The translations under genes were made by a program, and so were the position numbers. A DNA stretch of 62,757 nucleotides, the filler included, from Sanchytrium tribonematis (taxonomy: Eukaryota): assembly GCA_018985235.1 (NCBI GenBank). It is 7 parts of 7 records of this genome, joined end to end, with 100 filler letters (N's around TTAATTAATTAA, not from the genome) between each part and the next. Parts side by side here need not be neighbours in the genome. Positions count along the whole stretch, not along the records: positions 11,510 to 39,904 come from JADGIG010000057.1; 6 more parts are not named here. One strand, given 5' to 3'. The notes beneath the pieces were generated by a model that did no database searches, had not been told where the DNA came from, and saw only the letters and a program-made list of their open reading frames with translations. Shown one piece after another: positions 1,246 to 56,494 of this stretch. Position 1 is the first letter of the stretch; each line of letters opens with the position of its first letter.

Positions 1246-3916
1246 TTAGCTTAGTATGAATTTTGAAATCCCAAATAAGAGAATAAACACAATTATAAAC
1301 AAGGACGCAATTAAGTATTGTGTCATTGAAGTGCCCATATCGAGCCACGATCCCTCAGTTTTGATTTCAAAGAAGAATCTAATTGTTGTCAAATCCGAAA
1401 ATGCAATCGCTAGTAGATAAACGACAATTGGCTCAATTTTCCAGGATAGAGATATGGTGTATATGGTCAATGAAGACAAAATAAATGGAATAAGAATTTT
1501 GATCATCAGTAGAACACCCATCAGAAATGGGTCAAATTTTGTAGTAAATCGATATATCGATTCTAAAGAAAAGCTTCCAAAGCTTGCTATATTACCAATT
1601 GCAAAAAAACTTGCGTAGACTAACAATAACAAAAGCATTGCCAGTCTTAAATATAGTCTTGACTTGAGTGAAGAAGACTCACCTTTTTCTGAATAACTCT
1701 TTGATGCGTCTCGTTCAATTTGGAATAAGAAAAATAATGATAAAAATAGAGTGCCAAAGAATGCAGGCTCAAATTTTAAACTTAACAGTATGTAAATCGG
1801 CAAAAGACTTAAATAAATATTTAAGATTCTCTCTATCAAAGATACGTTACTTAATTTGCAAGACAATACAGTGATAATTGGAACTAGCAACGATAGCCAG
1901 CTAATGTATTTTTGATCTGAATTATTTGTTAAATATATTGAGATGAAAATGCAAACAAACTGGATTTTGGATATATTTTTACAGGAATTAGAAACCCTAA
2001 CAAACTTCATCGTAAAAACGCCACAAAGGCAAGCATAAATCGAGGACAAATTTCTATATTAAGAAAAATTACAAGTAATTTTGATCAATGTCGGATTGTA
2101 ATGGCAAAGTCGGAAATATTGAAAAAATTAAACATGCTCCGCAGAATATCGCAGTTTCTTTTTTTTGAGAGAACAGTAGCATCATAGGACCTAAGACGAG
2201 GTAAAAGTATGATATCGTGGTGCTATCTAAATACGATTGAGAAAGAGCAGCAACCCAAATTCCGCAAAATAAAATCTCCAAGAAATTCTTCAAGTCGAGT
2301 AGCTGCTTAATATTATGCCTCAAAGGTATCAAAATTGTCAGTAACGTCGCGATCAAAAGTATGTACATTGAAAATGACCAAGTTTCCGCTCTTAGACAAA
2401 TAAATAGAACAGTGACTGTCCAAAGAGTAATAGCAATATCTAAATCTTTATCACTGGCTTGTAGTTCTCCTATTGTGAGGTATTTCAATAACGTGCAGAG
2501 CATATAAATGATGTAGCCTGCGGTTATCAAAAGTTGAACTAGGCTTTTGTCATAGGTTTGATAATACTGTATTCCTTCCTTAACTGATTCTATCGATTGC
2601 AGCGTCTCAAAAATCGTTGAAGTTGTATTACTGGATAAAGAATGTGGTTTGAATTGCCAAAATCGAAGCCCAATACGTTTTTGTGTTTCCTTGTGAAGAT
2701 AAAGTGATTTCAATTGATTATAATTATCTATTAAAGCATTCAATCGTTTCTTTTTAGGAAGTAACTTGATAGGCACAACTCCCAAATTATTACTAGGAAC
2801 TGATGAGCCCAAAAGAATACCAATCAACGAAGCAATATCTATTTGATTTATACTTGTAGGTTGGGGAATGGATTTCGCAGTTATGTCATATTGTAATTTA
2901 TGGTCAAGAAGCCAACTTTCGTAAAAATCGAAATGTTTTTGCAATTCATGATCTGAATCAAAAATATCAGGTGAAATATTGCTACCCCAAATAACAAATG
3001 GTGTTTTAATGTTGTGTGGATCCGAGTCTCCATGAGAGCCTCTGTCAGACATGCCATGGTCAGCGGTATATATCCATGTAGTTTCATGATCTATTTTTTG
3101 AAATTCCTCGGCAGATTCTGTTGTACCATAAAATTCATTAAACAGTACCTCAATTTCTTCTAAATAAGCATCGACTTGTTTAACAGTATTTATATATTCC
3201 TTCGAATGTGGTCTGAAAGCATGACCAGCAGAATCAACCCCACAAAAATGAAAGAAAAACAGACTCTGGTGATACAGTTGAGTTTTTAAAGTCTCATTTG
3301 TCTCAGCTTTTTTGAATAAATTAAATACTCCATCGCGAACAAATTTGTTCATTTTCAAATAATCAGACTTGAAATCATATTCAGGGAATCCATCTATGTA
3401 GTGTTTATGATCTTGCCCTATCAAATGTCCATTAATAAGAGAAAGTTGCAAATGTGGTACATAGGTATGAGTAATTCCAAGATCACCAAAAAGATAAGCG
3501 TTAGTATTATTTAAAACGCAATCTACCTCTACTGGATTTTTGCTCCAACCACGAAGGACCGCACTGGGATCTTCTGTAATCCCACAAAAAATTGACATGT
3601 GCCCAGGTCTTGATTCTGTGGGTGCTTTACAAATACTGGTGCCATAGGCTCCTTTAAATATTTTAGAAAATACAAATGGCGAAATGATGTCACTTCCATT
3701 GTTAAAATGTGGATCATAGAATGTATCATGTCTCAAACCGTCTGCAATTGCCACTACAACTCTTTTTGATTGTTTGTTTTCTAACGGAATTGGCGGTATA
3801 TTGACAATGGGCGAAACGAAATAAATATCAAATATAGATAAAGCAAAAAGGATGTGGAGTATGATGCCAAGTGTGATCCATGACATGGAATTTGCCATCT
3901 TTAATAAATGATACAA
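1246..3916 (-). CDS. MCD4: GPI ethanolamine phosphate transferase 1 (PIG-N/Mcd4), 2 exons
   Basis: ADGLR, PTESRPGH, TADHGMSDRGSHG motifs and multi-TM C-terminus; ORFs joined in frame by intron 2054-2072; start may be 3898. Confidence 0.92.
2054..2072 (-). other. 19-nt spliceosomal intron (MCD4)
   Basis: gtaatttttcttaatatag; removal gives ...QNYLNLSSIY in frame. Confidence 0.85.
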
Positions 3917-11632: not shown

Positions 11633-13022
11633 TTAATTCAATTTACTTTTTGGACTAAAGCCACCAGCTAAGTTTGCAACAAATCTTAAGGCTTTCAAAA
11701 CCATTCCATTACCTTCAACAAAGCCTACAGACTTATATTCAACATTCAATTTTTTTGCCAAAGTTTGTAGCTGTTTTCTAACAGTTCGCAGCCTATTTCG
11801 AGGCAGCCTAGGAAACACATGATGCGTTGTTTGAAACTGAAGACCACCATGTAACCAGTCCAACCAGGGAGAACATTCAACATCCATCGTAGTTCTTAGC
11901 ATTCTGTGAATCATGCTTTCATAATCTGGGGTATTTGTGTCCATCGCAAAGTGAGAAAGCGTGATTTGGACATGTAAAAGTGCAGTCAATGCGTGACAAA
12001 TTAAGGTATATACTAATTTTGTCCATAATCCAGGAATAAATGTAAGTAGATAGAAATACCAGGTGCCGAAGAGTCCCATACAAACAACTTCCAGCTTTCG
12101 ATGTTTAATTTTATCTTTTGTTAAAATTCCAGCTAAAAATACTAAGCTTTGAACATACAAATTAAATCGAGCAAACATTAAAACAATGTAATAAATCTAT
12201 GTAAATCAGGATTACGTAATGTTGATACTGGACAACAAACTGAGAAAGCCTATCGAAGGTCAGCTTGCGACCGTGGAAACTGCTGTAAATTGAGTTAAAA
12301 AACTCCGTTGTAACAGCAAAGAAAGGCAAATGCTGGATATCTGGATCGTGGTGAGGATCATTTGTAATAATATGATGTATATTATGCGAGTGTTTCCACC
12401 ATCCCATCGAAATACCTCCAAACAAGTCACCAATCAAAATGCCTATGACGTAATCAACCGGTTTATGCGTAACTCCGTAATGCCCCAAGTCGTGTCCCAC
12501 AAAGGCAATTTGATGCCAAAAAAACCCAAGAGCAAAAGCCGATAATATGTAATACTCGCAATAAATTAAATACAATGAAAAAGCTGCAAGAGAAACACAT
12601 TTAACTAATTCTCGATAATAAAATGAATAGTCAGTATTGTAAAGTCCTGCTTGCAACAGTTCCTTGTGCATATCAATCACAGCCTCTCTTTGTTCAGTCA
12701 TTTTAGTATCAGTATGTAACAAATCCAGCTGGTCTTGGATTCTACCTCTTTCTGCTTTAGAGTAGTTACATTTTTTGTTCCAAACAATTGCATTTTTCTG
12801 CAAGATCCCTACAGAATAATGCTTAAGATAAGATAAGGTCTGCTCGGGATGTAAAGTCATAAAATAATCGGTCATATCTTGATATTTGCCATGTTCAAGA
12901 GCAAGTCTGCCACCAGGGTGCCTATGCTTGAAGTCACCTATATCAATAACATAAGGGCTTACAAAGAGCCATTCAGTTTCGAAATCCGTCGTATCCAGCT
13001 TTTCATCCCATCGAGCAGACAT
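11633..13022 (-). CDS. Cytochrome b5-fused front-end desaturase (delta-8 sphingolipid / delta-6 family), 2 exons
   Basis: HPGG; His boxes HDLGH, HNIHH, QTTHH; intron 12197-12215. Confidence 0.9.
12197..12215 (-). other. 19-nt intron (desaturase)
   Basis: gtaatcctgatttacatag; gives QYQHY|IYYIVLMFARFNLY. Confidence 0.9.
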
Positions 13023-13179
13023 TTAAAATTTCAATGTTTCAAGCGAAATTGATTTTTGGCAAAAGTGATACCCCGGTGTTCCGCTTTATATGTTTGATAA
13101 AAAGAATTTATTCGCCTCTTCATGTTAATTAAATGAGGTTGGAAGATTCTCATATCATCAGGCCCTGATGAATAAATAT

Positions 13180-14764
13180 TTATTCCACTAATTTTAATCC
13201 TTCATCTGCTTTCACAATTCGAATAGTGTTTGTCTTGCCAGATCCTCCAGCCCAGCCATGAATTACCAAAACTAGATCATTGACTTTTAAGAGCTTACGC
13301 TCGATGGCCGTGGCGATTGCTTTTTGGAGACGTTCGTCCACCTGATTCTGCCATTCCTCTCCCTTTAATGGCCTGTCTTTCGGCATCTCATGAAGAACAG
13401 GATAGCAACCTCTATACAGATGACATTGTCTGGCGGTTGAAGCAGACTTTGTTACAGTAATAATTGGAACCTGAGGTCTATATTTAGCAACCAGTCGAGC
13501 GGTTGTACCCGTAGTGGTCAAAACCACAATGGCGGACACTTGCTGCTCGATGCAAGCGTTTACTGCCGAGCTAGCTATAGTCTCTGACGTTTCCAACATC
13601 ACTTTTTGACAACTTTGAATAGCCAAAAATAATGGGGGATAACAGACTGAACTTTCACCCTCAACGCAGAGCTGGTGCATCATTTTCACAGATTCTACAG
13701 GAAACTTTCCTTTGGCTGTTTCACCGCTAAGCATAACACAATCAGCACCATCCAAAACAGCATTTGCTACATCGCTGCATTCAGCTCTAGTCGGTCTCGG
13801 AGAATTTGTCATAGATTCCAACATCTGTGTGGCACAAATGACTGGCTTTCCAATAATGTTACATTTGGCGATCATCATTTTTTGAGCAACAAAAACTTTC
13901 TCTAATGGAATTTCCATACCCAAATCACCTAAATAAATGTTAATTACCTCTTGCTACCATCACACCATCAGTGACACCTAAAATTGCATCAAAGTTTTTA
14001 ATTCCTTGCTGATTCTCGATTTTCGAAATGACTTTGACATGTTTTCCACCTTCAGAAAGTAAATCTTTGATTGCCATAACATCATCTGCTCTTCTAATAA
14101 ATGACGCAAACACCATATCAATTTCTTTTTCAATACCAAACTTGATATCAGATATATCTTTCTCACTTAAAGCAGGAAGTTCCACATTTGTACCCGGCAA
14201 ATTGACATTCTTTCTTGATGTCAATGTATGTGTGTTAAGTGCTTTTGCTTTGAGATTTAAATCATCTACTTTTGACAAAATTTCTAGCGATAAATTACCA
14301 TCTTCGATATAGACTAAACTCCCAGGTTGCATATGACTAATTCCTTTGTAATCGATATAAATTTGCTTTTCACTGCAGTCATCCTTAAATTTGGAATCAG
14401 TTGTTAAAATAATATCTTGTCCTTTTTCGACTGTATAAGTACCATCGTCCTTGACTAAACCAGTTCTAATTTCTGGACCTTTTGTATCTAATGCAATAGC
14501 AATAACAACTTTAGGTCGTTGCGCCCTTGCCTTTTTAACATTCTCAATGGTCTGACCATGAAAATCATGATCGCCATGACTGAAATTCAATCTAGCAATA
14601 TTCATTCCAGCATCAATTAAACTCAAAATAAACTCGACAGAATTATTTTTGCCAATTGTGCATACAATGGCCGTTTTTCTATAATTTCCCATGCCTTCCA
14701 TGACATTAATATTTGCTGTCCACTCAAGTCTAGTTGAAATAGTTCCCTCTCTGCGTTTAGACAT
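13180..14764 (-). CDS. PYK1: Pyruvate kinase, 2 exons
   Basis: RLNFSHG, DTKGPEIRTG, spliced MVARGDLG, ATQMLESM; likely start MSKRRE at 14764. Confidence 0.97.
13929..13947 (-). other. 19-nt intron (pyruvate kinase)
   Basis: gtaattaacatttatttag; restores the invariant MVARGDLGMEIP exactly. Confidence 0.97.
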
Positions 14765-14803
14765 GTCAAATGGCAATCTCCTCGAAACCGCGATTGCAAT
14801 CAA

Positions 14804-15022: not shown

Positions 15023-15032
15023 ACATTTATGC

Positions 15033-16230: not shown

Positions 16231-16273
16231 ATTGATGAAATAAAATATTTTAAGGCCATTTCAATTTCCATTT

Positions 16274-18530: not shown

Positions 18531-19791
18531 ATGCTTGAAGTTTTACTATTTTCAATTTTAAATGGAATACTACTCATCCTAGTTCATTCGTTATCGTCAA
18601 AGAGACTTACAAATTCAGAATTGATCTTTCAAATTTTAACAGTTGCTTATACGATATCAATGGGGTTATATTTTGATTATGCAGACGCATGGTTGTCAGC
18701 ACTATCAATTTCAATTTTATTCGTTCCAGCAATAGCGATGATTAAATTAGGATATGTTGAATACCAACTACAAAATAGATATCACGAAAAAATGAAGTCG
18801 ATTACAAACGATTTATTTGAAATTAAGAAAAAGAATGAGTTTGCAGAAAATGACTTGGATCATCCGGTATTATATGTATCTAAAGTGATTCAATCAAATA
18901 ATGTGGTAGCTTTTAAAGCATCTTCACTTCTTAAATGGTCAGGCTCATTTATTTTGGTTTTACTCATAATTTTATTTAATGCTCCCTTTAGCGACAAGAG
19001 AAGTCAACATTTTGATTTTGAAAAGATTCTTGCTATCTACTCTGCTAGTGTTCTACTCTCGCTAATATTTCTATTCAAGACAATTAAAAAGAAGCAATTT
19101 GATTCACTTAAAAGGTCTCATTTTTTAATTACTGAAGTGTTTTTAGAATTGCTAATTTTCATTGCAATTATTTGTTTGTATGCTCTGAAATTAGATGGAT
19201 TGCGACTTCTCACATTGGGACACTTGACAATACATCACTTTGGAATATTTATGTTTTATATTCGGAATTTTCCACGTAAAAATGCCAACAGGCAAACACA
19301 GAAATATGAAGAGTTTGAATCATTGCTAGCAGACACCATCATGTACACCAAATTTAGACTTTATTGCTCCAGAATGAGAGATGAAAGAAAAATAATATTT
19401 CTGGAAGCGTACAAAGAATGTGAAAGCATGGCTTCTATCAATATAATGAAAGGATGTTCTTCATTTGCTGTTGCCTTGTCAGGCTTAGAATTGGCTCCAA
19501 AATCAAGCTCACTTGAGAGCATGAAGCAATCTGAGAAAAGAGTACAAAGACTTCACAACGCAACGTATGAAATTTATCAGCTTTTTCTCGACGAAGGCAA
19601 TTGACATTAATTTAGGGTCGCCTTACTTATTACGTGATGTTTCCACTAAAGAGATTAGTCTTGTTCGACAGAATCGCGAAACTTTAGATTTTACTTCTTT
19701 AAATCCAATTTATATTGAAGTTTGCAAATATTTGTATATCTGGCATTATGACAATTTTTTAGACCAGCAAGATTCGGAAGAGTATAATTAA
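18531..19791 (+). CDS. Multi-pass membrane protein with C-terminal RGS domain, 2 exons
   Basis: About 6-7 hydrophobic helices, then FESLL...KFRLYC...IIFL...IYQLFLDEGSPY; GC-AG intron 19597-19615. Confidence 0.65.
19597..19615 (+). other. 19-nt GC-AG intron
   Basis: gcaattgacattaatttag; joins FLDEG|SPYLL in frame. Confidence 0.8.
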
Positions 19792-21715: not shown

Positions 21716-23870
21716 ATGGACAACTATGCGGTCCATCTCACAGACCATAATAATAATTCTTTAGATGAAGAAAGCGCGAAGGAAGAGATTGAAGCATTGG
21801 GATATGATTTCAAAGGAAATATTGCGAATTTAGATGGATATTATTTAATAGGTAAACCGCTACACAAAAGAGATTTGGATGACGCTACAGTAGAATCTGA
21901 GCTGTCTGATTCTAATAGAGTCAAATGGTTTGAAAAGCAGATTGGTAAAAAAAGAGAACACAGAGGAATGATGAATTTTAATGACGAGTTTTATTTGTCG
22001 AGTTGGCACTTGAACAAAGAGTTTGCCCCTCCCAATTTTCTGGGAACAGCCATAGATATGAATGTGGAACCAGTTTGGCAAAATTTTAAGCTTCATGGAA
22101 ATGGAATTAGATTAACTGTTGTTGATGATGGCATTGACTATAACCACTCTGATTTAAAACATTCATATGACGAGAGTGCTTCTAGGGATATTTTGATGAA
22201 TGTTGCAGACATAAAACCAAAAAATGAACTTTTGGACCATCACGGCACAAGATGTGCTGCAGAAATTGTTGGAATGCCAGGTAATAAAAAATGCGGAGTT
22301 GGGGTAGCATTCAATGCCAAATTAAGTGGTGTTACGATAATAGGAGATAAATATCCCACAGATTCAGACGAAGCAACTGCTTTTAAATATCATTTTGAGA
22401 CTCAAGATATATTTTCAATGTCTTGGGGGCCTAGTGACGATGGAACTCAAGTCGATGGTCCAGGAAGATTAGCTAGTCTTGCTTTAAAAGATGCGGTAGA
22501 AAAGGGGAGAAATGGGAAGGGCCTGATTTTTGTAATTGCTGCAGGAAATGGGGGCCAAACTATGGATAATTGCAATTACGATGGATATGTAAATTCCATA
22601 TATACAATTTCTATTGGAGCGGTAGATATCGCTGGTAAAAGGCCCTGGTATGGAGAAGAGTGTTCAGCTATCCATGTTGTTTTACCAGGTGGTGATCAAA
22701 CTAACCCCATTTATACATCAGACATTAATGAAAAGTGCACAAATGGACATTACGGTACCTCAGCAGCGGCGCCTCTAGCTTCAGGTGCTATAGCCTTGCT
22801 ATTAGAATATAGACCGGATTTATCTTGGAGAGATGTTCAATATCTTTTACTTTCAAGCACAATTAAAAACGATGACACCGACACTGAGTGGGTTAAAAAT
22901 GGTGCAAATATCTGGACTCATCCCAAATAGTATTTACAATTTATTTAGTGGGTTCGGTTTGCTGGATACCAATTACTTGATCAATAATGCTAAAAATTAT
23001 AATGTTTTGCGAGAGCAGCATTCATTTTCATTTTCCAACTCTACCCAAATCAAATTAGGACGATCTGCTATACCGTTGTTGATAGAAGTTAGAAATGTTT
23101 TAGGCATTCAGTCAATTGAACATGTGCAAGTGAAAATTGAAATTATCCATCCTAGAAGAGGCCAATTATCTTACTCATTAACTTCGCCTTCTGGTTTCAC
23201 ATCTCAGCTTGCTAAGCCTAGAATCAATGATAAGTCGGAACAGGGTCTCCCAAACTGGACATTTATGACTAATAGGCATTGGAAAGAGCCCCCCAATGGT
23301 GTCTGGACACTAAGTATTATTGATGAGGGAACTGGTGAAATAGCCAGTGATATATTAGATAGCAAAGAGGGTTTTCAAAGAAGTGCTGGTTACATCAAGG
23401 AATGGGAGCTAATATTATACGGTGAATGTGTTGACAAATATTGTGAGCAGCCCCAAATCCAAACGCCAGATGCCGCAAATTGGTTAGCTTTTGGGATTAC
23501 AGTCGCCATTTTTATATTAGTGGGATTTTCGGCTTTATTTTATTTTAAATATTTCAAGCATAGAAATCAAAATAAAAAGTATGCAGAAGTCGTTAAAAGC
23601 ATTAGTTCACATAACTTGAAAATACTTGATGAGGAAGACCAGATCAAATCTTCACCAATTGAAGTGCCAAAAGATTATCCTTTTAAAAAGCAGCAGAGTA
23701 GTAGCGCATTACCAAGATCGATTTCTACTGACAGTTTGAATACAAGGGAAAAGCGAGGTTATGTCACTGATGTCCCCATTTCACCACTGTCTCCCCTAAG
23801 TCGATCAGCCTCGGGAAACATTAGAAGAGATAACGAAAATCTACTAAAGCAATCTTTGAAAAATAAATAA
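21716..23870 (+). CDS. KEX2: Kexin/furin-like proprotein convertase, 2 exons
   Basis: VVDDG, HGTRCAAEI, GTSAAAP, P domain, TM segment; intron 22930-22948. Confidence 0.93.
22930..22948 (+). other. 19-nt intron (kexin)
   Basis: gtatttacaatttatttag; restores HPKYGFGLLD. Confidence 0.95.
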
Positions 23871-25711: not shown

Positions 25712-26277
25712 TTATTTTTTCTTTTGTGATTTTTTAATTTGGATTAAAAACCTCCTAAATGAGTCTTCTAGCAATATTTGGAAAACGCATTGGGCTGCTG
25801 CATCGTAAACTTTGTAGTAATCACCAATTTGCGTAGCAGAAGATACATTTCTAATCAATCTATATTAGAAAATGATTACAAATCCTTGACCGCTGATGGT
25901 AGATAAACTTGCATCTCGGCACTATCTACCACATATAAATAAAGAATAAAATTAGCCTTATTTTTGATATCCGCGAGCCTCAAAGGCTTGAGTGGTAAAA
26001 ATAATCGCCTAAATGCCACTACTTCTTCATAAAACTTGAGATTTTCGGCAGACTTTTCTTGCTCTAAGAATTGCATGAGCAAAAGCCTTCCAGTAGGATT
26101 ATTTAGAGTAAATTGGAGTTGATTTGATAAGGATTCCATGTGAAATAAAGATTTTTGGTATTCATTTATATTGCTAGATTTCAAGACCTGACTAATGCTT
26201 AAAGGAACCAAGATTGAATTTTTTCGATTTATAATATCCGATGAAAGCACGCTGCCCATTTTCTCTTTGTTGTACAT
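25712..26277 (-). CDS. Soluble RGS-domain protein, 2 exons
   Basis: FLEQEKSAENLKFY; spliced C-terminus VYDAAAQCVFQILLEDSFRRFL. Confidence 0.85.
25860..25879 (-). other. 20-nt intron (RGS protein)
   Basis: gtaatcattttctaatatag; adds the conserved RGS C-terminal helix in frame. Confidence 0.88.
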
Positions 26278-26309: not shown

Positions 26310-28230
26310 TCATAATCTTGTTTTCACGCCTATTCTCAATAAGAATTGCCCTTGATGTTTCTGCTGGATTTCGTTATTACTGACCATTTGGTGTATTGCC
26401 ATCACAATTGAATCATAATCATGTTTTGCTCGCTGTAATTCTGAAATCAAAACCGATTCTCTCATTTGCGCCCCCAAAGGCAATCTTTGATCGATGAATG
26501 AATGAATGGCATTTAAGGACGTTCTAGTTGGCTGCTTCAAGACTGTCTGAAGCGTTCTAAGGGTAGAGCATTTGAAAAGATTCAATGCTTCTCTTGCATG
26601 GTCCATGGTAACAACTTTAGACATTGCACATTTTGCTCTTGCCTCACTAAGTCTTACAAGGGCCTCTAAGTGACGAACTGTGAAAGGGATCATGCTTCTA
26701 GTTTGACTTTCTTTTTCTAGGTCATACATGTTTTGTCTCATTTGAACATATGTATCATGTAGAAAGGATGAAGCTTCTACGCTCATTGTTGGCGCAATTT
26801 GTTTTAGAAATTGAATCAATGGGGCTGCATCCGCTGATTCTCTAGTATTTTGATGAACATTTAAAACATGCATTGCGATTCTTATATCCTGCTCCACATC
26901 GTGTTTGTCTTTCAACCAAAATAATAAATCAAATCTACTTAATAGTGAAGACTTGAATTCGATTTGTGAAGCTGCAGATTTAGTATCTTGAATTCTACCA
27001 AACATAGGATTTGCTGCAGCAAGAACAGCTGCACGGGCATTCAAAACAGTAGATATACCTGCTTTGGAGATACTTAATGTTTGCTGTTCCATGGCTTCAT
27101 GAATGGAGACTCTATCTTCATCTCTCATCTTGTCAAATTCATCAATACATAAAACACCTTGATCTGCAAGGACCATCGCACCAGCTTCAAGATAAAATTG
27201 TCTATTTTTGTTTAATACAGCTGCAGTCAAGCCAGCTGCACTTGATCCCTTCCCACTCGTGAAAACAGCATGTGGTGCCAACTGTTGTGTTCTTTTTAAA
27301 AACTGAGATCTAAATGAGAATGAATTACTTGGCAACTCCTGGGTCTCCCATTAATAGGACATGAATATCGCCTCTCAGTCGCACGTCTGGAAGCGGTCGA
27401 GTTGTTCCTCCAACTAGAAGCAAAATAAGCGCCTTTTTTATATCTTCGTGGCCGAAAATAGAAGGAGCTATGCGGTTTGTTAATTCCTCGAAGTAATCCT
27501 TATGCTCGTAAATTGCCTCAACAGAAGCTTGAGCTGTTTGCTTGGTAATTCCTGTGCAACTCAAAACTGTAGAATGAACGGCATTGTTTTTAGATGGTTG
27601 AATTAAGTAGTATCCATGAATCATGCATTTGTCTCCAGGTTGAACAAAGTCGACAAGATGCTTGTCAGTAATTACAACACTCTGTTTGATTTCACTCTCT
27701 GCCAACTGAATTGTCAAGTATTGCACTTCTTCAAACAATGATTGAGTGTGGTGAATCACCATTGTATTCATTCCACAATCAGAATTTTCGCAATTGTATT
27801 GTTGGTCGTTGTTTTTTACAGTTTGGTTGCAAATGGAACAAATCCAGCAAAGAAGCCTGGGTTGAATAGCAGGCGAGTATACCTTTGTGATAAGACCTTT
27901 AATAGATAAGAACTTATGCAACTGGGATGTATCTTGCAAAAAAGCTGTTTCTTCCCCAGTATAATGGAAATGTAATTCGACTTTATCTGAGCATTTTTGT
28001 TGCAAGTATTTTCTCAAAATTTCATTGTTGATAAGTGAGTTGCACGAAACAAAATCACCGAAACCTAAATTTAAATCATCTGTTGTGATAAGCATAGGTT
28101 GGCTTGGGACCATTGGATTGAATTTTTCTAAAATCAATTGCATGAATGCGGCTTGGATATCACTTTGACAGATCGCGTCGATAAGCTGGGCGTCGTTTTG
28201 TGGGCCTGGTAATGTAGAAGCAACCTGCAT
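26310..28230 (-). CDS. MCM5: MCM5 replicative helicase subunit, 2 exons
   Basis: Spliced GDPGVAKSQFLK, TSGKGSSAAGLTA, IDEFDKM, SRFD. Confidence 0.9.
27310..27328 (-). other. 19-nt intron (MCM5)
   Basis: gtaattcattctcatttag; restores Walker A GDPGVAKSQ. Confidence 0.97.
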
Positions 28231-30663: not shown

Positions 30664-31480
30664 ATGTTCCGCTCCAAGACATTGCTTTCCAGCTGGGAGT
30701 ACATTCAAACAAAATCTGTAAACAAAGTCGGTGTTGTAACTTTGCATCGCCCAAAAGCGCTAAATGCTTTGTGTACTCCACTTTTTAACGAATTGATCAA
30801 AAGCTTGCGAGATTTTGACCATGATCCAAATATTGGAAGTATCGTATTGACAGGAAGCAAAAAAGCCTTTGCAGCTGGTGCAGATATTAAAGAAATGAAG
30901 GATACGAATGGCATTCAAAATTACAAATCCGATTTTCTTGGCTTTTGGCAAGATATAGGTATTCTCAATTCATTTAGCAAAAATTAGGAAACCGATTATT
31001 TCAGCGGTTAATGGATATTGTCTGGGCGGTGGTTGTGAATTAGCGCAACTCACAGATATCATATATGCTGGAGATTCTGCTATGTTTGGTCAACCTGAAA
31101 TTAAACTAGGTACAATTCCAGGCGCAGGAGGTACCCAGAGACTCACAAGAGCTATTGGAAAGTATAAAGCTATGGAGTTGGTACTCACTGGCAGAATGAT
31201 GAATGCACAAGAAGCATACCAAGCCGGATTAGTTGCAAGAGTATTTAAATCGGATGAATTATTTGACAAGACTATGGAACTTGCTCAAGAGATTGCCAGC
31301 TTTTCAAAGCCTGTTACAATGATGGCAAAAGAAAGTGTCAATAAGGCCTTTGAAACCACACTGACTGAGGGATTAATTTTTGAACGCAGATTATTTCACT
31401 CTACCTTTTCCACTGAGGACCAGAAAGAAGGAATGGCCGCGTTTGCTGAAAAACGAAAGCCCCATTTTAAAGATCAATAA
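30664..31480 (+). CDS. ECHS1: Mitochondrial enoyl-CoA hydratase, 2 exons
   Basis: [41 protein letters not shown]. Confidence 0.95.
30959..30977 (+). other. 19-nt intron (enoyl-CoA hydratase)
   Basis: gtattctcaattcatttag; gives [12 protein letters not shown]. Confidence 0.93.
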
Positions 31481-37382: not shown

Positions 37383-39039
37383 ATGTCTGCACCTGTCGTT
37401 GTCATCAATACTGGAACTGAAAGAACCAAAGGAAGGAAAGCCCAATTGTCATGTATTCAGGCTAGTGGAGCTGTCGCATCAATTATCAAAAGTTGCCTTG
37501 GACCTAAGGCAATGTTGAAAATGTTGTTGGATCCAATGGGCAATGTTGTACTTACTAATGATGGTAATGCCATACTTAGAGAGTGTGAAGTCACTCATCC
37601 TGCAGCAAAGTCAATTATTGAGCTAGCAAGAACTCAGGACGAAGAAGTTGGAGATGGTACAACAAGTGTAATTATCTTGGCTAATGAATTGTTGCAGGTA
37701 GCTCAACAACATTTAAAATTGCATCCAATTGTTATCATCAATGCTTATAGAATGGCTTTGGAAGATGGATTGGCGTTGCTGGAAAAAATTGCGCAACCTT
37801 TAGATCTTAAAGATACTGAGAAATGTCAACAGATTATCAAATCCAGCATCGGAACCAAATTTGGAAGTAGATTCGATAAGCTTATCTGCGATATTGCTTG
37901 GAAAGCAGTCAATATCGTCAAAGAAACTGTATTTGGAGAAACAAGCGTTGAAATCAAACGATTTGTGAGGATTGAAAAAATTCCTGGTGGTTCTTTAACT
38001 GAATCAAGAATCTTGAACGGAGTTTGCCTAAACAAAGATGTTACCCACCCTAAAATGAGAAGGGAGATCAAAAATCCTCGAATTGTTTTGTTGGACTGCA
38101 CTTTAGAATATAAGAAAGGGGAATCGCAAACAAACATCGAGATTAGCAAGGAAGCCGACTGGAAGAAGTATTTGGAAATTGAGGAAGAGCAGATTAAAAA
38201 AATATGTGATGAGATTTCCAGAGTAAAGCCAGATCTTGTAATTACGGAAAAAGGAGTTTCTGGTAATTTGAATTTACTTAGATCTTGCACAGCATTACTT
38301 GCTGAAAAATAACATCACAGCAATCAGAAGAGTGAAAAAAACAGACAATGTCAGACTAGCTAGAGTTACTGGAGCCAGAGTCGTCAATAGACCCGAGGAA
38401 CTAACTGAGCAAGACGTAGGAACTGCATGTGGTATTTTTAAAGTGGAACAAATTGGTGATGAGTACTTCACATTTTTAGAAGAATGTAAAGACCCGAAAG
38501 CTTGTACCATAATTTTAAGAGGTCCAGCAAAGGACATCATTAACGAATTCGAAAGAAATGTTCAAGACGCTTTATGCGTTGCCAGAAATATTGTTTTGGA
38601 CCCATTCCTATGTCCGGGTGGCGGGGCAACTGAAATGGCTTTGTCAGTTGAGTTGGCTAAAAAAGCTTCTACAATTGAAGGGACTGAACAGTATCCTTAT
38701 GCGTCTGTTTCGGATGCTTTGGAGGCAATTCCAAAGGTTTTAGCCTCAAACTCCGGTGCAAAGCCTATTCAAATTATATCTGATTTGAAAGAGAAATATG
38801 CAGCTGGGGAGCAGTTTGGATTTGATGGCAACAAGGTTAAAGTCGTTTCTACGAAGGAATTGGGTATCTGGGAACCAAAAAGTGTGAAAGTGCAAACCTT
38901 AAAAACAGCAATTGAAGCATCTTGCATGCTTCTGAGAGTTGATGACATTGTGAGTGGTATTGCTAAAAAACCAAAGGGAAATCCGTCCGTGGAAGAGAAT
39001 GAGGCTGCTATGGAAGCTGCTGCTGCAAATGAGCAATGA
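37383..39039 (+). CDS. CCT3: T-complex protein 1 subunit gamma, 2 exons
   Basis: GDGTTSV, LEYKKGESQT, spliced TEKGVSDLAQHYL. Confidence 0.97.
38263..38281 (+). other. 19-nt intron (CCT3)
   Basis: gtaatttgaatttacttag; restores EKGVSDLAQHYL exactly. Confidence 0.97.
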
Positions 39040-41012: not shown

Positions 41013-42825
41013 TTAATACGGTCGTATTGCTCTTGGCTGGTAAGCTCGATTTCCTCTACTACGTGGACGTGCTCCTCTTGAATACGAACGATTTGGGGTA
41101 TAATTGCCAGTAGGATTTAATTCTTTGGTTGGATAGGACCCATCTTGACGATTCCATGACAAATTTTGTTTTGAGTTGTTAGATTTGAGATATTCTTTGG
41201 ACGTAGGTGTTTGTGATGGAAATGGTTTTCCAACGATTTTTAGACTTCCTCTTCCTCGCCCACGACCTCTTCCACCTCGCCCTCTTCCTCTGCCCCTCAT
41301 TGAGGGAGCAAATTGATTTGCAAAGTCTTTCAAGCCGACATCTTTTCGTCGTTTCATTTGATCGGCCTCCCTCTGAAGAGTGTTTTCATCATTTCCAGCT
41401 TCTTCGGGTGTGATGGCATCATGTTTTAATAAATTTAATCTTTGATACAAACTATATTTACCATTTTTGATAAGATCTGTGTCAAGATCAACATGTGAAT
41501 TGTTACTCTTGCTAATCATATGTAATTTCATTTTTTGAATCTCTTTGTCGTCTTCCTGATTTTGTTTTAAATAGCCAACTAGAAACCCTACTTGAAAGGC
41601 TTTAGTTAAGCTGTCATTCCCACTTAATTAAATAAAGTTACCTATATGCAGAATTTTCGATATTTTCCGTAATGTTCACATAAGATGCAATATCCAGTTC
41701 GGCAGCTGTAAGAAGTCGCTTTGTTTGATTCTCGCTCAATTTTAAATTATCCCTGTTATAAACCTCCGCAGCTTGCCATGAATTTTGAAATAAGCCAAGT
41801 TTTCCAGATTCCTTAAATTCATCATAGGCGGAAATATTAATTTCATTCGATTCTCCTGTTGCGTACGGCAACACGGCACCAGCAAATTTGAGGTAAAAGT
41901 TACTCACCTTTTTAGCAGTAGTTTCATCGCATTGTCCAAGAATCCTTGAATTAAAAGGATTGAAAACATGACTATCATTATTAAGAGGCTCAGTCCTAAG
42001 CAACCCATTATTTTTCCTAATATGAGGTGCGTTGAATCCAAATCTATTCTCGATCTGGTTTTCAGTTTGATGCCATTGAAAATCGACTTTAAGTTGTTTT
42101 TCTTCAATTTGCTGAAAGTTGGTCTCACAGTAAACTGCATATAATCGAAGCAAATGATTTCTATGAGACACGCCCAAATTGCTGTGAATATATTCTTTGA
42201 TGTCGCTTATTTTAAAATATGACAAATCTGTTAGCCATGTTTGAAATGACTCTGGCAACTCGATAAATAAATCATTAAATAGACAAGCAATCTCATTAGT
42301 TCCGTTGTAAGTGAATATCTTGGGGGTATCCGAGGAGCCAAGTATCCCAATAATTTGAGTAAATAAGCCTTGTATTCCAACTCGACCGTGTTCTTTTAAA
42401 CCAGGGTAATATCTAAGGCCATAAAGAACATGGAGATTTAAATCCATGCCCATTTTTTGCAGATATTCTCTATTTTTGCCATTGACAATAGTCTTTTCAC
42501 TAGGGTGTAATCGAAATAGATAATTTGATACTTCAAATGTATCGTCAACTTTTTTCCAAAAGGACACAGTCCAATTGTAAATGCAGGCATATGTGGCAAT
42601 GTATTTTAATGCTATATATTTTGCGTCTCTATCGTCTTTTGAATGAAATTTTGCTGGTTGGCCAAATGTGGAATAGTCGGTTTTCATTACACAATAATCG
42701 CATTCTTTAGCAGATTGTTGAATTATGCTACAAATTTCATCCCCCCAATTTCGACTATCTATGACTGTGTAAGGGATTTCCTTAAAAGGTTGCATGGCTT
42801 TACTCTTTTTCACAAATGAAATCAT
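41013..42825 (-). CDS. Divergent CAF1-family (TOE1/PARN-like) protein with RG-rich tail, 2 exons
   Basis: IPYTVIDSRNW...DYCVMKTDYSTFG and YLQKMGMDLN resemble TOE1/PARN; ORFs joined in frame by intron 41623-41641. Confidence 0.55.
41623..41641 (-). other. 19-nt intron (CAF1-like gene)
   Basis: gtaactttatttaattaag; links SAYS|GNDS into the downstream RG-rich ORF with no stops. Confidence 0.8.
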
Positions 42826-43015: not shown

Positions 43016-43926
43016 ATGGTTGAGAAAAAATCTTTGAATTGGACAAATTTAGCCGTTGGTGGATTTATACAAATAATGGAAGTCTCCACATTAGGCCAGC
43101 CATTTGAAGTTTTAAAAACTCACATGGCTGCTAATCGTGGAGATAACTTACGAACAGCCATAAAAAAGACATATCAAAGAGGAGGAGTTTTTGGTTATTG
43201 GCAAGGACTCATTCCCTGGGCTTGGATTGAGGCCGGAACAAAAGGCGCTGTGCTTCTATTTGCTTCTTATGAGGTGGAGTCATTTTTACAAACTTTTGGT
43301 GTTAATAAAACTGCAGCCTCGATGACAGGGGGTGCAGTGGGTGGTATTGCTCAAGCATATACAACTATGGGATTTTGCACATTTATGAAAACTGTAGAAG
43401 TAACGAGACATAAAGATGGTCGTGGAACGTTGGAAATTGCGGCTCAAGTTTGGAAAAAAGAAGGATGGAAAGGGATGAATAAAGGCGTTAGTGCAGTCGC
43501 GCTTAGACAGATGACCAATTGGGGTAGCAGATTTGGAATCTCAAGATTTGTTGAATCGGTTATGAAAGGTGAGCAAAAGGACAGGAAGCTATCAAGACCA
43601 GAAAAAATTCTTTCAAGTGCGATCGGAGGTGCTTTGGCATGTTGGAATCAACCCTTTGAAGTTATCAGAGTGGAAATGCAGAGTCAATCTAAGGACCCAT
43701 CCTTAAAAAATTATGGATTTACGGCAACTGCAAAAGATATATATCAAAAAAATGGTATATGGGGATTTTATAGAGGCGTAACTCCTCGTGTTTGTCTTGG
43801 CGTTTATCTTACTATATGCATGGTAGTCCAATTTTAATTTAGGTTTTTGGAGGCGATGAAGCCAAAGCGAAAATTGCAGAGTGGCAAAAGTCCAAAAAAG
43901 AAGCAGAATCTAAGAAAGTGATTTAA
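43016..43926 (+). CDS. YHM2: Mitochondrial citrate/oxoglutarate carrier Yhm2, 2 exons
   Basis: EVSTLGQPFEVLKT, QGLIPWAWIEA, RQMTNWGSR. Confidence 0.9.
43823..43842 (+). other. 20-nt intron (YHM2)
   Basis: gtagtccaattttaatttag; gives TICMVFGGDEAK; a 17-nt alternative donor at 43826 is also in frame. Confidence 0.8.
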
Positions 43927-45357
43927 TAAAATTGCAATATTAATGCATACCAAATTATTGTGGATAACGCACTCCCTGTGTTTTCTGTAGTTTCAGTTGA
44001 AAGTTGTTGTAATTTAGGAATAACGCTTTTGTTCTTCTTCACGTCAAACACAGGTTGCTGAGTCATATTACCAACGTACATTTTAATATAATTCAATTGG
44101 CCTTCCATATATCTCGCATGTTCTGGATTCATGCCTAACTTTTTGTAATCTTTATCAGTAATATTATTATTTACAGCTACAAAAGAGTCATTTCCAAAAT
44201 AATTTCCAATATAAGAGACTGAGTAATTCCACTTGTCGTCTGCTGTAATGTTACTGATTGAATAAATATCGTGCAATCCTTCGAAGACTTCCACTTTGAC
44301 CTTTTCGTGTAATTGCTCAACTTCAATTTCTTCGATTTCTTCAATATCCTCAAAAGATTCTGTGGAAGTCGCCTCTGCTTCTGATTCTTCAACGTCAACA
44401 GTAGGCATTGGCGCAATAGGCAAATCAATAACTTCGCTTGTGCTATTTCCAACAGTGACGTTTGTTATATCGCCAGTTTCATTATCATCTCTTTTATAAA
44501 CTCGATGACTTTGCATTTTCGGCATCATCTTTGCGCTAGGAAATGTGCCTTCATATTTAACGCACCTATTTTTCATCAGAAGTACGTCAATTATTTTGGT
44601 ATTGAAGATAGGGAGTGGCGCATTTTTCCACCAAGGTGTAAATCGCTGCGCAGTCCATATATCGTGAACATATTGGTATAGAGATAATAAAAAGTCGACA
44701 AAGGCATGATGGAAATAAAATGATGCATCATTGTTACCTAAATAAATTAAAAGTACTGTAGCTAACGCCCATATCACCACCAAAATGCATGTGTAACAAA
44801 ACATGAGGACCATTTTCCAACAACTTTGAGAAATACTCAATTCCATAAGGTGTAGCAATAATGCTTGCAATGGTGCTAGTACCAGAAGGCAAAATATCCT
44901 TTCTATATCTTCTTGAAATGCAGTGCTTAAATGGATATCCTACAGTATTATATTCAAATACACCACCTTTAACACAACCATTTCTATCAACTGTACCTAA
45001 ATACTCGTCTGTAAATAAATTGTTTTTGTCGAAATTCCATTTTAATTTATCGCTGTCTTTGGCCCAATTCCAATATGGCAAAGTCACAGTTTTATCAATT
45101 TTTATCATTTCATTTTCAAAATTATATAGAAACTCTCTATGCCAATATAAAAAATACATATTATTGTGAAATCTACTGAAAAATTTGCTATGCATTTCCG
45201 AATATTTTCGCATAATGCCTCTTTCTTTCATAACATTGAAAACTTTCTTCACTTTTTGCCATTCTGGTTTTGACAAAGATCTAATCTCTTTTCTTATTCT
45301 AGGATTAGAGCACCCTACTTTGACTTGAGCAATTAAAATAACGATCAACAGTAACAT
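43923..45357 (-). CDS. Secreted tyrosinase (type-3 copper), possibly GPI-anchored, 2 exons
   Basis: Signal peptide; RIRKEIR, H...FLYWHR, LPYWNW, PHVLLH, spliced SNNDASFYFHHAFVD; hydrophobic C-terminus. Confidence 0.88.
44738..44756 (-). other. 19-nt intron (tyrosinase)
   Basis: gtacttttaatttatttag; restores CuB-site spacing. Confidence 0.92.
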
Positions 45358-45974: not shown

Positions 45975-48009
45975 TTAATATCTGAGTCCTAATTCCTTAT
46001 TGATTTGTCGTAATCTTTCTTTCAAGTAAGCGACGTTGTCAAGTTTATCTTGCAGTTGTTTAATTTCGTTTTCAATTGAAGTTTCTTCCTCTTCAGTGCC
46101 AATTTTGTTAAATTGCCAAGTTTTTTGGTCCCCTACCAGATTCAATAAATGTCCATGATATTTAAATAGTGCAGGTCTATGACTGACAGTGATCAAAGTC
46201 ATGCCCTTGTCCTTCAAAGTTTTATAGATCAGACCTTCAACATCTGAACTGACTGCAGAACTACATTCATCTAAAATAACATACTTTGGAAGATGGTAAA
46301 ACAAACGGCAAAGGTTCACTCTCTGCTTTTCTCCTCCACTAAAAACATCTTTCCAATCTTTGATGGTATCAAACCCGCCTTCTCTATTCTCCAAATAGCC
46401 TAAATGAACTAAATCTAGAATTTCTTGCAGATCAGAATCTGTCACACCTTTTTCAATCATATCTTCCTTGCTATGTGGATATATCAATTGATCCCTCAAT
46501 GAACCTATACTTAGATAAGCGCGCTGAGGGATATACATGATAGTATTTTTAGACGGTCTCCTTAATTCACCTTCAAATAATGGCCATAATTGACGAATAA
46601 CCCTAACAATTGAGGTTTTCCCACTACCATTTGGCCTAAGTCAAATCAAATTACCCTGTAATAAGTGTATGTTCACCCGGTTGGACTCTAAAGGATAAAT
46701 TTTCTAAAATCAATTCTCCTCCCTTTCCAGATGAACTAGGTATTACAATTTGTGCATTTTTAAATTCAAATCCATCGGCATCAAACGAAATTAATCCCTT
46801 GGCATTTGCATTTAAATATTGCTCATCCTGGTGTTTTGGATCAATATTATAAACCCCTTCATGAAGTTCATGAAGAACTTGGTAAGCAGTAAAAATTCGC
46901 TGTAAATAACCTCCGACCTCCAGCATGTCTTTGTAAGCATACATGATACGTCCTCCAGCATCTCCTAAACTCAGCATTAATCTCTTAGCAATAACAAATT
47001 GACTACTAGCACTTCCGATCTCGTCTTCATCGTCATGTGAAGGTGTCTTTCCGGCATATTCTTGAAAAAATACAGGTATACCACAAACAAGGAGTGCTGC
47101 TGCACTCCATTCGTACTTGACAAATATATCCTCGACCATGTTGTACGGGCCCTTGTATTTTAAAATTTTATGAATGTGTCTCTGCAATTTGTCATACGCT
47201 TGATTCAGCATAGATTGCTCAATTTTCTCACCATCATAAAAACAGATTTCTTCTGCATTCGTTATCAACCTAGTGTGAGCAGCACGATAGGAGCCCTCAA
47301 GATGAGCTTGCTGAGCTGCTAATTTTCCAAATGAAGGTGAAATATATCTTAAAACTCGAGCTGTGACCATGTAATTCAAGAATAAACCAATGGTACCAGT
47401 ATTTCCAATAGTATTTTTTAATTGCCAGCTAAATAATATCATGTCTAGAACTGGTTTACAAAGATTTGAATATAAGCTTGTGATTGCATCACAAAATTTT
47501 GCGATATCTGTTGTTAGATACTGATCAATGCTTTCAATGCGATTGTCAAAGTTCCCAATTTTGTAAAAGGAAAGGTTGTCGTCGAGGTATACTTTTAGTG
47601 CGTAGTTTGTTAAATTCAAACGCATTCCCATGCTTAATCTAGATTGCAAGAATTTAATTTTTGCATTAGTGTAACTGCAGGGAACAGCCAAGGCACACCA
47701 AATGAATAGAGAATATAAAAATTGGCTTAATTTTCCTTTCACTAACGATTTCACAATTTTTCCATCCAGCCTAGTTATAACAAGACTCAACCATGTTCTC
47801 AGTATTAAAAATAATGAATGTAAACTCAGAGTGTAGATATCTTGTTTATGTAACGCAATTTTTAATAAATTGAGCAATTGCTTGTAAGAAGTTAATTTTT
47901 TGTTCAAAAACAACGACGATTTCAATTTAGGATCTAAATCTCTTTTGAATCTTACTAAAGAAGCCAGTGCTAGAACGCCAACAGCAATAGTGGAGTTTCT
48001 TACCGACAT
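45975..48009 (-). CDS. PXA1: Peroxisomal ABCD half-transporter (Pxa1-like), 2 exons
   Basis: NAEEICFYDG, spliced Walker A GPNGSGKT, YIPQRAY, FSGGEKQR, LDECSSAVS. Confidence 0.9.
46636..46654 (-). other. 19-nt intron (ABCD)
   Basis: gtaatttgatttgacttag; restores LITGPNGSGKT. Confidence 0.97.
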
Positions 48010-51449: not shown

Positions 51450-52647
51450 TGAAAAGGTACATGGGCTAGGGAAAAAATGAAAATTTGGCTACATTACTTT
51501 ATATTACCAGTCCTTGAAAATGATCGTTCATTTCAATCAACTTTGGAGAAGGATAAGTACACAAGCTTGATATTGCTTCAAATGGGCTCGAAGTAATAAT
51601 AAATTTTGTATTGGGAAGTAATTCAGAAAGTTTTGCAAGTTTGGATATAAAGATATTATACATATCATCCGGAAACAATTCCAGCTCTTTAAGGGAATCT
51701 TCATGAACAAATGGGCCATTAAAAATAGCATAATCGGGTTTCTTTGATGCAATTTCTTGAATAGCTGAGTCAAAAGCAATCAATCCTCGAGAGTTTCCAA
51801 ATGGGCCAGAAGCAATGGAAACTATATTATTCGTTGGAGACTCGGGAAAATTTTTGTACATGGGAATCTTTGGATGTAAAATACTTTTGACTTGAAAAGA
51901 TCTTCCAGAAGTGTTTTTGCCAATTAAACCACAAATCTGACCACTAAATATTGAATCTGCAAATTTCCAGAAAGATAGGTCGGCTTTCAAATCCATAAAT
52001 TCTAAGGAACAAACCCCTCTACCCAGATCAGAAGGACATATCAGGCAGGCTTGCTTCTCTTTAGATTGCGGAGTGTCATCATTGATATCGTCTGTAGCAG
52101 GTAAAATTAATATTCTTCCAAATGTGAGGACATCTTCTTGAGATATCGAGTCTACAGGTGCGAGCTCAATTTCAAAATTATTGTCTTTCGCTTTCTTTGA
52201 AAATACATTTTCAAAATCTAAATAAGCGTTATCTAATTCCTCTGCAAACATTTCTCGGTCAGAATCAGCTGTGATAAAAAAAGCTTTATACAGTTCTACT
52301 TCATCGATGGGTGCCGTCAGTGTCCCAGGAATTCTGCTTTCAGAATAGTCTATTTCACCCAACCGGTAAATAACCTCACCTCGATTGACTGAAGAAACAT
52401 GACCTTCACTTGACATTCCGCTTATAAGAAGTGAAATCCCACCAGAAGATATATCTTTAGGTGGGTTATTTTGTGGTTTTTTTCGTTTAATTTGATTATA
52501 CAATATTGTTCTGAAAGATTGAAGCCTAGAATCGGTAAGCTCACTGACATTTATGCCATTATTCAAAGCATATGACTGCCAAGTAGCATCAAATTCGTCT
52601 CTTGTAATGCCTAAATTTTGGCAACATTCTTGAATTGCAATTTCCAT
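51450..52647 (-). CDS. POL12: DNA polymerase alpha subunit B (3' truncated), at least 2 exons
   Basis: SQEDV..FGRI, SIFSGQI..LIGKNTSG, ASGPF, NGPFV; spliced LPNFHFFPSPCTF. Confidence 0.8.
51489..51507 (-). other. 19-nt intron (POL12)
   Basis: gtaatataaagtaatgtag. Confidence 0.82.
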
Positions 52648-55068: not shown

Positions 55069-56494
55069 ATGTTGTCCTCCTTGAAATTAAAAATGTCACT
55101 GGTACAAATTCAAAAATTAACTAAACCGAGTTTGGTCATCTGCGCAAAACAAAATGTTGAGTTGCTCTCATCGTACTTACAAAAACCAATTCCAGAAATA
55201 AAGGTCAATCAAGTAGAGATTATAAACGAGCAAAAAGTGGTTTTATTTGATAACAAATTATCCAGAAATCTGGGTCTCTTCAGGGTTGATCAATTTGAAA
55301 AACAACTTGGACATGTCGGTGAAAACAAAGAAGTTCTTGTGGTTGTCCCTAATAGATCTTGGTTGGCTCCGACAGCAATATCTGTTGCCAGATATTTTCC
55401 AAAATTTACTAGAAAGACAGACAAGAAATCTCAGGAAATGATCAACTTAGACATTGCTGTAGTGGAGAATGGTAAATATGAACTTTTATCTCAGTCAAGT
55501 CAAAAAGAATCAATTTCAAACTACATTGAATCTACTCAATTAGCCGCAGAGCTTGTGGATACACCACCAAACGAACTGTATACTACCTCTTATGTGGAAA
55601 GAGTGAGGGATCTTTTCAAGGGTTTACCGGTAGAAATCAACGAAATTATGGGCGAAACTCTAAAAGAAAAAGGATACGGTGGACTTTGGAATGTTGGCAA
55701 AGCTGCTGTTTATCCACCAGTGCTACTCACTATTTCTTACAAAGGAAATAAATCTTCAGAAGATAGTGTTGCTCTTGTTGGAAAAGGAATTGTGTATGAC
55801 GCAGGTAATATTATATAATTTAGGCGGTCTTTCTATAAAAGGAACTGCAAATATGTGTTCTATGAAAAGCGACATGGGTGGATCTGCTGCTTGTGTTGGT
55901 GCCTTGCTCAATATTGTCAAATCTAAAGTCCCAAAAAATGTACATGCTGTTCTCTGTTTGGCTGAAAATGCCGTCGATTCTCATAGTTATAAAAATGATG
56001 ATGTATTCACATTGTATAGCGGAAAAACTGTCGAAATTAATAACACTGATGCTGAAGGGAGACTAGTTTTAGCTGATGGAGTTGCACACGCTAGTAAGAA
56101 CTTGAAGGCCAATGTAATTGTGGACATCGCCACTTTGACTGGAGCGCAAATGGTGGCCACAGGAATGAATCATGCTGGTTTATTGTCTAATGAAGCAGAA
56201 CTGGAGGCTCATTTTATAGAGGCAGGAAAAGCTGTTGGAGAACTTCTTCATCCTTTATTATATTGCCCAGAGCTTTTGATGTCTGAATTTGATTCAAAAA
56301 TTGCAGACTTTAAAAATAGCGTTAAAGACAGAATGAACGCGTCCAGTTCTTGTGCTGGTCATTTCGTTGAGTCCAACATAGTCGGAAGTTCAAGATGGGT
56401 GCATTTAGATATCGCTGGACCTTCTTTCAAAAGTGACCGTGGTACTGGATTTGGTAGTGCACTTTTATTTCAAGCGGTCTCTACTTTGAAATAA
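55069..56494 (+). CDS. M17 leucyl aminopeptidase, NPEPL1-like, 2 exons
   Basis: Spliced VGKGIVYDAGGLSIK, MKSDMGG, NTDAEGRL, KNSVKDR. Confidence 0.92.
55805..55823 (+). other. 19-nt intron (aminopeptidase)
   Basis: gtaatattatataatttag; restores YDAGGLSIK. Confidence 0.96.

Follow-up and report, generated by a model that had tools for sequence, protein, structure and literature searches.

Probable introns of near-fixed length (19-20 nt) with a predicted branch adenosine close to the 3' splice site in DNA of likely sanchytrid origin

How a spliceosome might grip both ends of an intron only 19 nucleotides long, and where within so short a sequence branching would occur, is the question raised by the pyruvate kinase gene in the DNA considered here, a stretch of 62,757 nucleotides analysed as a whole and hereafter called the window. 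The insert that interrupts this gene reads gtaattaacatttatttag on the minus strand, and it belongs to a curated set of 16 that agree with it in length to within one nucleotide and in the design of their 3' ends. The account argued for below is that these inserts are probably, to judge from their sequence, spliceosomal introns of the U2 type whose length has shrunk to an almost constant value, with a predicted branch adenosine at -6 (counted back from the intron's 3' end) and the AG three bases on.

At the pyruvate kinase locus the evidence for an intron comes from the protein. Once the insert is removed the Pfam PK profile is joined at 247|249, and the spliced product of 521 amino acids aligns with 74% identity across 517 columns to P0005, an uninterrupted ENA protein. 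Because P0005 fixes the junction, 16-nt alternative introns at this locus were dropped. P0005 runs through the site without a break, which would mean that it derives from a spliced transcript or that this close relative has lost the intron. In two further relatives, P0122 and P0123, the open reading frames end 3 and 2 codons past the intron site. Distant pyruvate kinases returned by the related-locus search, one in viral contigs and five in JGI metagenomes (34-43%), were not used.

Most of the remaining introns emerged from a scan blind to the 3' motif, in which GT..AG pairs 12-60 nt apart were accepted when they joined two frames of at least 60 codons each. Lengths peaked at 19 nt with 15 candidates, 11 of which carried T-N-A-Y-N-W-AG. 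Of the four without it, one in the M17 gene and one in the tyrosinase gene represent alternative junctions, and the last two, +24333-24351 and -10584-10602, have no homology support either way. A further two 19-mers and two 20-mers came in once shorter ORFs were allowed and the motif was applied. The curated set (Table 1) comprises 14 introns of 19 nt and two of 20 nt from six of the seven contigs, with 15 GT-AG pairs and one GC-AG candidate. Five of the 16 (RGS, mitochondrial carrier, Pol alpha B, window edge and GC-AG) were chosen with the motif in view and are to that extent circular, whereas eight junctions are set without it: pyruvate kinase, MCM5, CCT gamma, M17, enoyl-CoA hydratase, PIG-N, tyrosinase and the ABCD transporter. 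Pfam profiles join in register across six, codon-exact for pyruvate kinase, MCM5, CCT gamma and M17 and by short extrapolation for enoyl-CoA hydratase and PIG-N. Raw counts of GTA...TNAYNWAG, chance matches included, stand at 16 for length 19, 6 for length 20 and 0-4 for each other length from 13 to 40, and no supported intron of another length was found in the scans of 12-60 nt.

Table 1. Introns of the curated set and pyruvate kinase exons, in window coordinates
Feature	Position	Strand	Support or remark
19-nt intron, PIG-N gene	2054..2072	-	Pfam PigN register by extrapolation; motif-blind match
19-nt intron, cytochrome b5-fused fatty acid desaturase	12197..12215	-	motif-blind match
Pyruvate kinase exon 2	13180..13928	-	Pfam PK and alignment of spliced product
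19-nt GT-AG intron, phase 1, pyruvate kinase	13929..13947	-	predicted branch A at 13934
Pyruvate kinase exon 1	13948..14764	-	Pfam PK and alignment of spliced product
19-nt GC-AG intron candidate, unknown-family gene	19597..19615	+	joins 368 + 57 open codons
19-nt intron, kexin-like protease	22930..22948	+	motif-blind match; S8 and P domains flank
20-nt intron, RGS-domain gene	25860..25879	-	RGS stops at profile 73/117 at junction
19-nt intron, MCM5	27310..27328	-	Pfam MCM 69|71
19-nt intron, enoyl-CoA hydratase	30959..30977	+	Pfam ECH_1 pieces in register (short extrapolation)
19-nt intron, CCT gamma chaperonin	38263..38281	+	Pfam Cpn60 262|264; site shared with 19-nt intron of P0243
19-nt intron, CAF1-family nuclease gene	41623..41641	-	motif-blind; joins 410 + 202 open codons
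20-nt intron, mitochondrial carrier	43823..43842	+	third carrier repeat incomplete at junction; 27 codons after
19-nt intron, tyrosinase	44738..44756	-	junction as in uninterrupted A. gromovi P0361; Pfam flanks
19-nt intron, ABCD transporter	46636..46654	-	Walker A motif restored; motif-blind match
19-nt intron, DNA polymerase alpha subunit B	51489..51507	-	410 open codons upstream
19-nt intron, M17 leucine aminopeptidase	55805..55823	+	Pfam M17 90|92
19-nt intron candidate, window edge	62736..62754	-	54 open codons after; upstream exon outside window

The members of the set differ in how well they are anchored. A single Pfam domain spans both sides of the desaturase intron, its register inexact; no Pfam domain crosses the junction in the CAF1-family gene; the RGS gene continues for 48 codons downstream of its junction without a Pfam match; and the contig ends 13 codons downstream of the Pol alpha B intron. 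The candidate at the window edge is the least secure of all. At the 19.6-kb frame break, where the gene has no homologue, a 16-nt GT-AG pair at 19565-19580 that lacks the motif restores the frame too; the 19-nt GC-AG intron, which has an AAG|GC context and the same branch motif as the other introns, is likely and is the preferred account. Several matches were set aside. The perfect motif match at +5054-5072 lies antisense over the stop of a PRAI gene and the start of a hexapeptide gene, both on the minus strand, and is attributed to chance; at +39478-39497 the AP sigma domain is complete already (1-141 of 142); +55768-55786 (M17) and -44762-44780 (tyrosinase) are disfavoured by profile or orthologue continuity; and +49069, -33586, +8446 and +23698 are antisense to or inside uninterrupted ORFs, or lack frames open on both sides.

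Relatives provide a small but independent set of introns, read from protein only, in that their ORF-called proteins run into introns whose sequence can be decoded from the read-through tails; for CCT gamma, lengths of 12-30 were tried. As a positive control, P0241, the CCT gamma model of the window itself, can be decoded only to 19 nt. For P0243 (CCT gamma, 85% identity) 19 nt is likewise the sole solution among 12-30, carrying Y(-9), T(-5) and T or A at -8, its decoding leaving base -6 free. In P0242 (87% identity) lengths below 20 are excluded, and a length of 20 nt requires T(-8), A(-6) and T(-5), longer lengths being allowed as well. The tails of P0122 and P0123 are too short for an intron length; in P0123 (an ENA pyruvate kinase, 70% identity) the intron would be 16 nt long if the stop is the T-N-A of positions -8 to -6, and longer ones are equally allowed. 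The A. gromovi tyrosinase P0361 has no break at the window's site, its frame being broken 15 codons into the window's second exon. Of seven solutions compatible with its tail the best is a 19-nt phase-0 intron with 17/24 identities, which forces C(-9), A(-7), A(-6) and Y(-5); a rival 19-nt solution has T(-6), 13/24 identities and a deleted copper-binding histidine pair. The two tyrosinase genes carry 19-nt introns at sites about 16 codons apart, and the difference suggests recent intron gain, loss or both. Separately, a search for sequencing runs containing the window listed one of DNA, X1, and none of RNA; X1, which is possibly the window's own source, aligns to window 11600-31500 with no insertion or deletion and with 17 single-base differences, clustered at 18812-19075, 27231-28061 and 29882-29932 and none in introns; these suggest allelic or strain variation.

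Aligned at their 3' ends, the introns bear out the original prediction that T(-8), A(-6) and Y(-5) are invariant, each being present in 16/16 of the curated set; the exact 16 on which that prediction drew may differ, the curated set having lost +5054-5072 and gained the GC-AG candidate on the plus strand, and the seven terminal octamers it listed are all present here. Its statement that length varies only on the 5' side stands insofar as the motif is tied to the 3' end in both 20-mers, the added base lying somewhere between +5 and -9, and it extends no further than those two 20-mers. At other positions, W(-3) occurs in 16/16, Y(-9) in 14/16, A(-10) in 9/16 and a purine at -7 in 8/16, with C at -9 in two introns and at -5 in three. 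The donor is GTAAT-like, with T(+5) in 15/16, G(+5) in none and +6 to +8 variable. A donor without G+5 weakens the usual pairing with U1 and U6, and heterotrich introns share the feature.

Intron interiors are 35% A and 53% T. Shuffling bases within introns never produced an invariant A column in 100,000 trials for all 16 introns; for the eight with junctions set by homology or a conserved motif it did so 31 times in 100,000. No invariant T-N-A pair appeared in 100,000 trials for either set. Neither the T column nor the Y column alone is significant in the eight fixed introns (20,937 and 56,811 of 100,000 shuffles). Among 324 background GT..AG 19-mers, 98 have A(-6) and 12 have T-N-A-Y. Because of these counts A(-6) is taken as a firm signal and T(-8) as firm jointly with it. 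The invariant spacing, with three bases between the A and the AG and no pyrimidine tract, holds in 16/16, use of that A as the branch being predicted, and lengths of 19-20 nt fall within a narrow class of up to about 21 nt. GT-AG or GC-AG ends, together with a conserved reading frame restored on removal, fit the U2 type. Positions -9, -7 and -5 are too variable for a strict WCTRAC branch consensus. U12-type introns have an RTATCCTT 5' site and a TCCTTAAC branch site, from which the GTAAT 5' site of these introns departs.

That branching takes place at A(-6) is itself likely. The adenosine stands in the sequence W-Y-T-N-A-Y, fits the U2 sequence GUAGUA with wobble pairs, and occupies the register of Yarrowia and the heterotrichs; a lariat loop of 14-15 nt, as originally proposed, follows by arithmetic. 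BBP/SF1 and then U2 GUAGUA, a sequence described as conserved across eukaryotes (PMC13685798), would read W-Y-T-N-A-Y, with T(-8) pairing with an A of U2, Y(-9) and Y(-5) pairing or wobbling with G, and A(-6) bulging out. Against the conserved U2 sequence Y-T-N-A-Y would pair mainly through T(-8), with wobble pairs at -9 and -5 (in a set differing by one intron), and the modelled helix is weak, since a purine at -7 and A(-10) are found in about half of the introns. The lariat would consist of the 14-15 nt loop and a 5-nt tail, its acceptor chosen by the fixed branch-to-AG spacing and not by a pyrimidine tract. An AG inside the Pol alpha B intron, at -10/-9, lies upstream of the A at which branching is predicted and would be skipped. 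Most introns, in the set differing by one, hold further TNAY matches in more 5' positions. An Rfam search of the window gave no matches, U1, U2 and U6 RNAs included.

Bound to an intron, U1 has a footprint that reaches +8, and that of U2 starts at -11. In a 19-mer, where -11 is also +9, the two would abut, and with G+5 absent from 16/16 introns U1 binding would be weak and brief, so that the U1 and U2 snRNPs would act in turn, with largely conventional early factors. The original argument that the loop is too small for simultaneous binding in the canonical manner finds support in human extracts, in which about 50 nt are needed from the 5' site to the branch and 35 nt abolishes assembly (PMC6692369); taken with the abutting footprints, this need makes binding in turn more plausible than a canonical A complex. 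The further claim that such crowding implies remodelled early assembly is a conjecture: Stentor, with a loop of 10-11 nt, retains all five snRNAs, U1 proteins, U2AF and SF3b in the published account, and early factors are listed for the sanchytrid A. gromovi.

The strongest competing reading extends the preferred one and does not exclude it. It keeps the branch at -6 and supposes a materially remodelled spliceosome, in which U1 would hand over to U6 in the absence of Prp28, U1C and Prp39, and neither Slu7 nor Prp18 would serve the second step; this is possible but unlikely. The protein repertoire can be gauged in A. gromovi, whose published eggNOG table (PMC8371127), in the part available, lists U1-70K, two U1A/U2B'' entries, Luc7, Prp40 and BBP/SF1; U2AF65, U2AF35, Prp5, SF3B1-4 and PHF5A; and SF3a60, Prp8, Cwc25 and Isy1. 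The U2AF, SF1, SF3b and U1 proteins whose presence the original prediction proposed to check are thus listed for this relative, from ORF-only models, and wholesale loss of early factors is not supported. Eight factors have no entry in that part of the table, namely Prp28/DDX23, U1C, Prp39, SF3B14, Slu7, Prp18, Smu1 and RED (sought by KOG/KO identifiers and, for some, names), while about 16 others were found. The missing Prp28, U1C, Slu7 and Prp18 entries are a weak lead to a subtler change, and they are coherent insofar as Slu7 is reported to be dispensable where the branch lies no more than 9 nt from the 3' splice site (PMC10158995); the lack of G+5 in every intron points the same way. The absences are weak, however, because the A. 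gromovi models (92% complete, about half of them unannotated; PMC8371127) are ORF-only and so would miss intron-split genes, and because the search went by KOG/KO identifiers; moreover, U1-70K, Luc7 and Prp40 are listed, and heterotrichs are described as retaining core machinery at still shorter loops. A bolder form, more doubtful again, holds that introns of 19-20 nt (perhaps 16 nt in one relative) are the shortest in fungi across the phylum and that the factors were shed as redundant or impossible: Slu7 and Prp18 owing to the fusion of branch and AG, and Prp28, U1C and Prp39 because U1 cannot stay beside U2. If that were true, sanchytrids would possess a U1-containing spliceosome lacking a Prp28-driven hand-over.

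A quite different reading takes T-N-A-Y for a 3' splice-site word read by protein, or for a spacing signal, with branching promiscuous or elsewhere, as proposed for nucleomorph introns that show no branch site. It would account for the weak complementarity to U2 outside -9, -8 and -5 and for the other TNAY matches that most introns contain, and it has a precedent in the 18-21 nt introns of the Bigelowiella nucleomorph, reported to splice well with no discernible branch A (PMC6009652). It is nonetheless improbable, for the invariant A holds exactly the place that it has in the Y-T-N-A-Y of branch sites and in the fused site of Yarrowia, the alternative TNAY matches shift in position or overlap the 5' splice site, and C-C-N-A-A-Y, as decoded from A. 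gromovi, is nearer the canonical branch sequence. A last reading, in which assembly frameshifts, pseudogene lesions or chance GT..AG pairs picked for their motif account for the inserts, is very improbable indeed: five of the 16 were chosen with the motif in view, +5054-5072 is a perfect match by chance and background 19-mers with T-N-A-Y do occur (12/324), but the motif-blind scan has a sharp 19-nt peak, essential genes are joined in register, the frames of relatives (70-87% identity) are broken at matching codons, and X1, though it may be the window's own source, has no indels over 11600-31500.

The DNA that carries these introns is likely sanchytrid, though not that of A. gromovi, an assignment made because the pyruvate kinase tree, the tyrosinase match and the base composition agree. 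The tree, a quick maximum-likelihood estimate from 29 proteins chosen from 240 matches with no named sanchytrid row, places the window and three ENA proteins on a long branch (SH-aLRT 100) that is sister to four Blastocladiomycota (96). Among 1.84 billion representatives the best match to the tyrosinase exon is P0361, Amoeboradix gromovi in EukProt, at 70%, the next matches lying at 28-36%. The window is gene-dense, eukaryotic in character and uses the standard code; its G+C is about 35%, ranging over 0.32-0.41 by 2-kb segments, against 34.6-36.3% published for sanchytrids.

In its parts the intron architecture is already known, and it is the lineage that appears to be new, such introns being apparently unrecorded for a whole fungal phylum; among the matches listed, judged by title and with most subscription papers outside the search, no prior report of sanchytrid introns was found. 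The closest parallel lies in the heterotrich ciliates. As the original prediction noted, they place an A near -6, and the same register is described for Stentor coeruleus (PMC9505925) and Blepharisma undulans (PMC13685798), the latter with the intron consensus GTAAWWTTTATWTAG, which fits T-N-A-Y-N-W-AG. Heterotrich introns of 15-16 nt resemble those of the window in their GTAA start without G+5, AT-richness, near-fixed length, predicted A(-6) and 5-nt tail, and the steric problem is already discussed there (PMC9505925, PMC13685798). The window introns differ in being 4 nt longer, in a loop of 14-15 as against 10-11 nt, and in a length that is mostly 3n+1 and not 3n. Because the host is a fungus, they would have evolved independently. 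This would be a separate, fungal origin of the heterotrich style of tiny intron, with the same A(-6) and the same loss of G+5, and such convergence suggests a common lower limit, physical in nature, on what the spliceosome can handle.

Other systems share some of these features, to the extent that the available portions of the cited papers describe them. Yarrowia, Trichomonas, Giardia and Spironucleus also lack a pyrimidine tract and fix the branch-to-AG distance (PMC2483917, PMC6679479); in Yarrowia lipolytica the spacer between branch point and AG is 2 nt, and its ACTAAC-AC-AG places T, A and C at -8, -6 and -5 as in the window (PMC2483917). All four differ in that their motifs are strict (ACTAAC-type), their 5' sites extended and most of their introns longer, whereas the motif of the window is degenerate. 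Introns of the Bigelowiella nucleomorph have the same modal length of 19 nt and are AT-rich, but have no discernible branch A and reside, several per gene, in an organelle remnant genome (PMC6009652). The parasite Mikrocytos mackini has uniform ultrasmall introns of conserved sequence, as here, yet it is a rhizarian with shorter introns (16-17 nt) and a reduced spliceosome in which no U1 snRNA was reported as found (PMC10245619), in contrast to the U1 proteins listed for A. gromovi. Microsporidia and Rozella, like the host of the window, are early-diverging fungi or relatives, parasitic, with short introns, roughly 25-35 nt long in Encephalitozoon and close to 30 nt in Rozella; microsporidian introns are few and poorly spliced, and the Rozella examples have no branch motif (PMC6349667, PMC2483917). 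That sanchytrid introns are the shortest in fungi is a lead; the available part of PMC8476143 gave no minimum fungal intron length.

There are practical consequences for annotation. Published sanchytrid proteomes are described as TransDecoder predictions from genomic contigs (PMC8371127), and each of the three EukProt models examined at intron sites (P0121, P0241 and A. gromovi P0361) terminates within such an intron or shortly past it. Because ORFs were called on contigs and the inspected models end at introns, gene counts, domain architectures and gene-loss lists for the phylum may be affected. Re-annotation would be cheap, and would yield both a genome-wide intron set and a test of whether loss of Slu7/Prp18 and of Prp28/U1C goes with the architecture.

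The window also has features unconnected with splicing. It consists of seven contigs joined by identical N-padded linkers at 5658-5757, 11410-11509, 39905-40004, 45630-45729, 51350-51449 and 57054-57153, and since the contigs were joined end to end, genes on either side of a linker are not real neighbours. On the minus strand at 6943-10615 a likely retroelement comprises a long ORF and, after it, a reverse-transcriptase ORF (Pfam RVT_1) interrupted by frame breaks, and the contig that carries it has none of the tiny introns. At 58799-59662, again on the minus strand, a gene encodes a protein in which a C2 domain is N-terminal and a CBM5/12 carbohydrate-binding module C-terminal.
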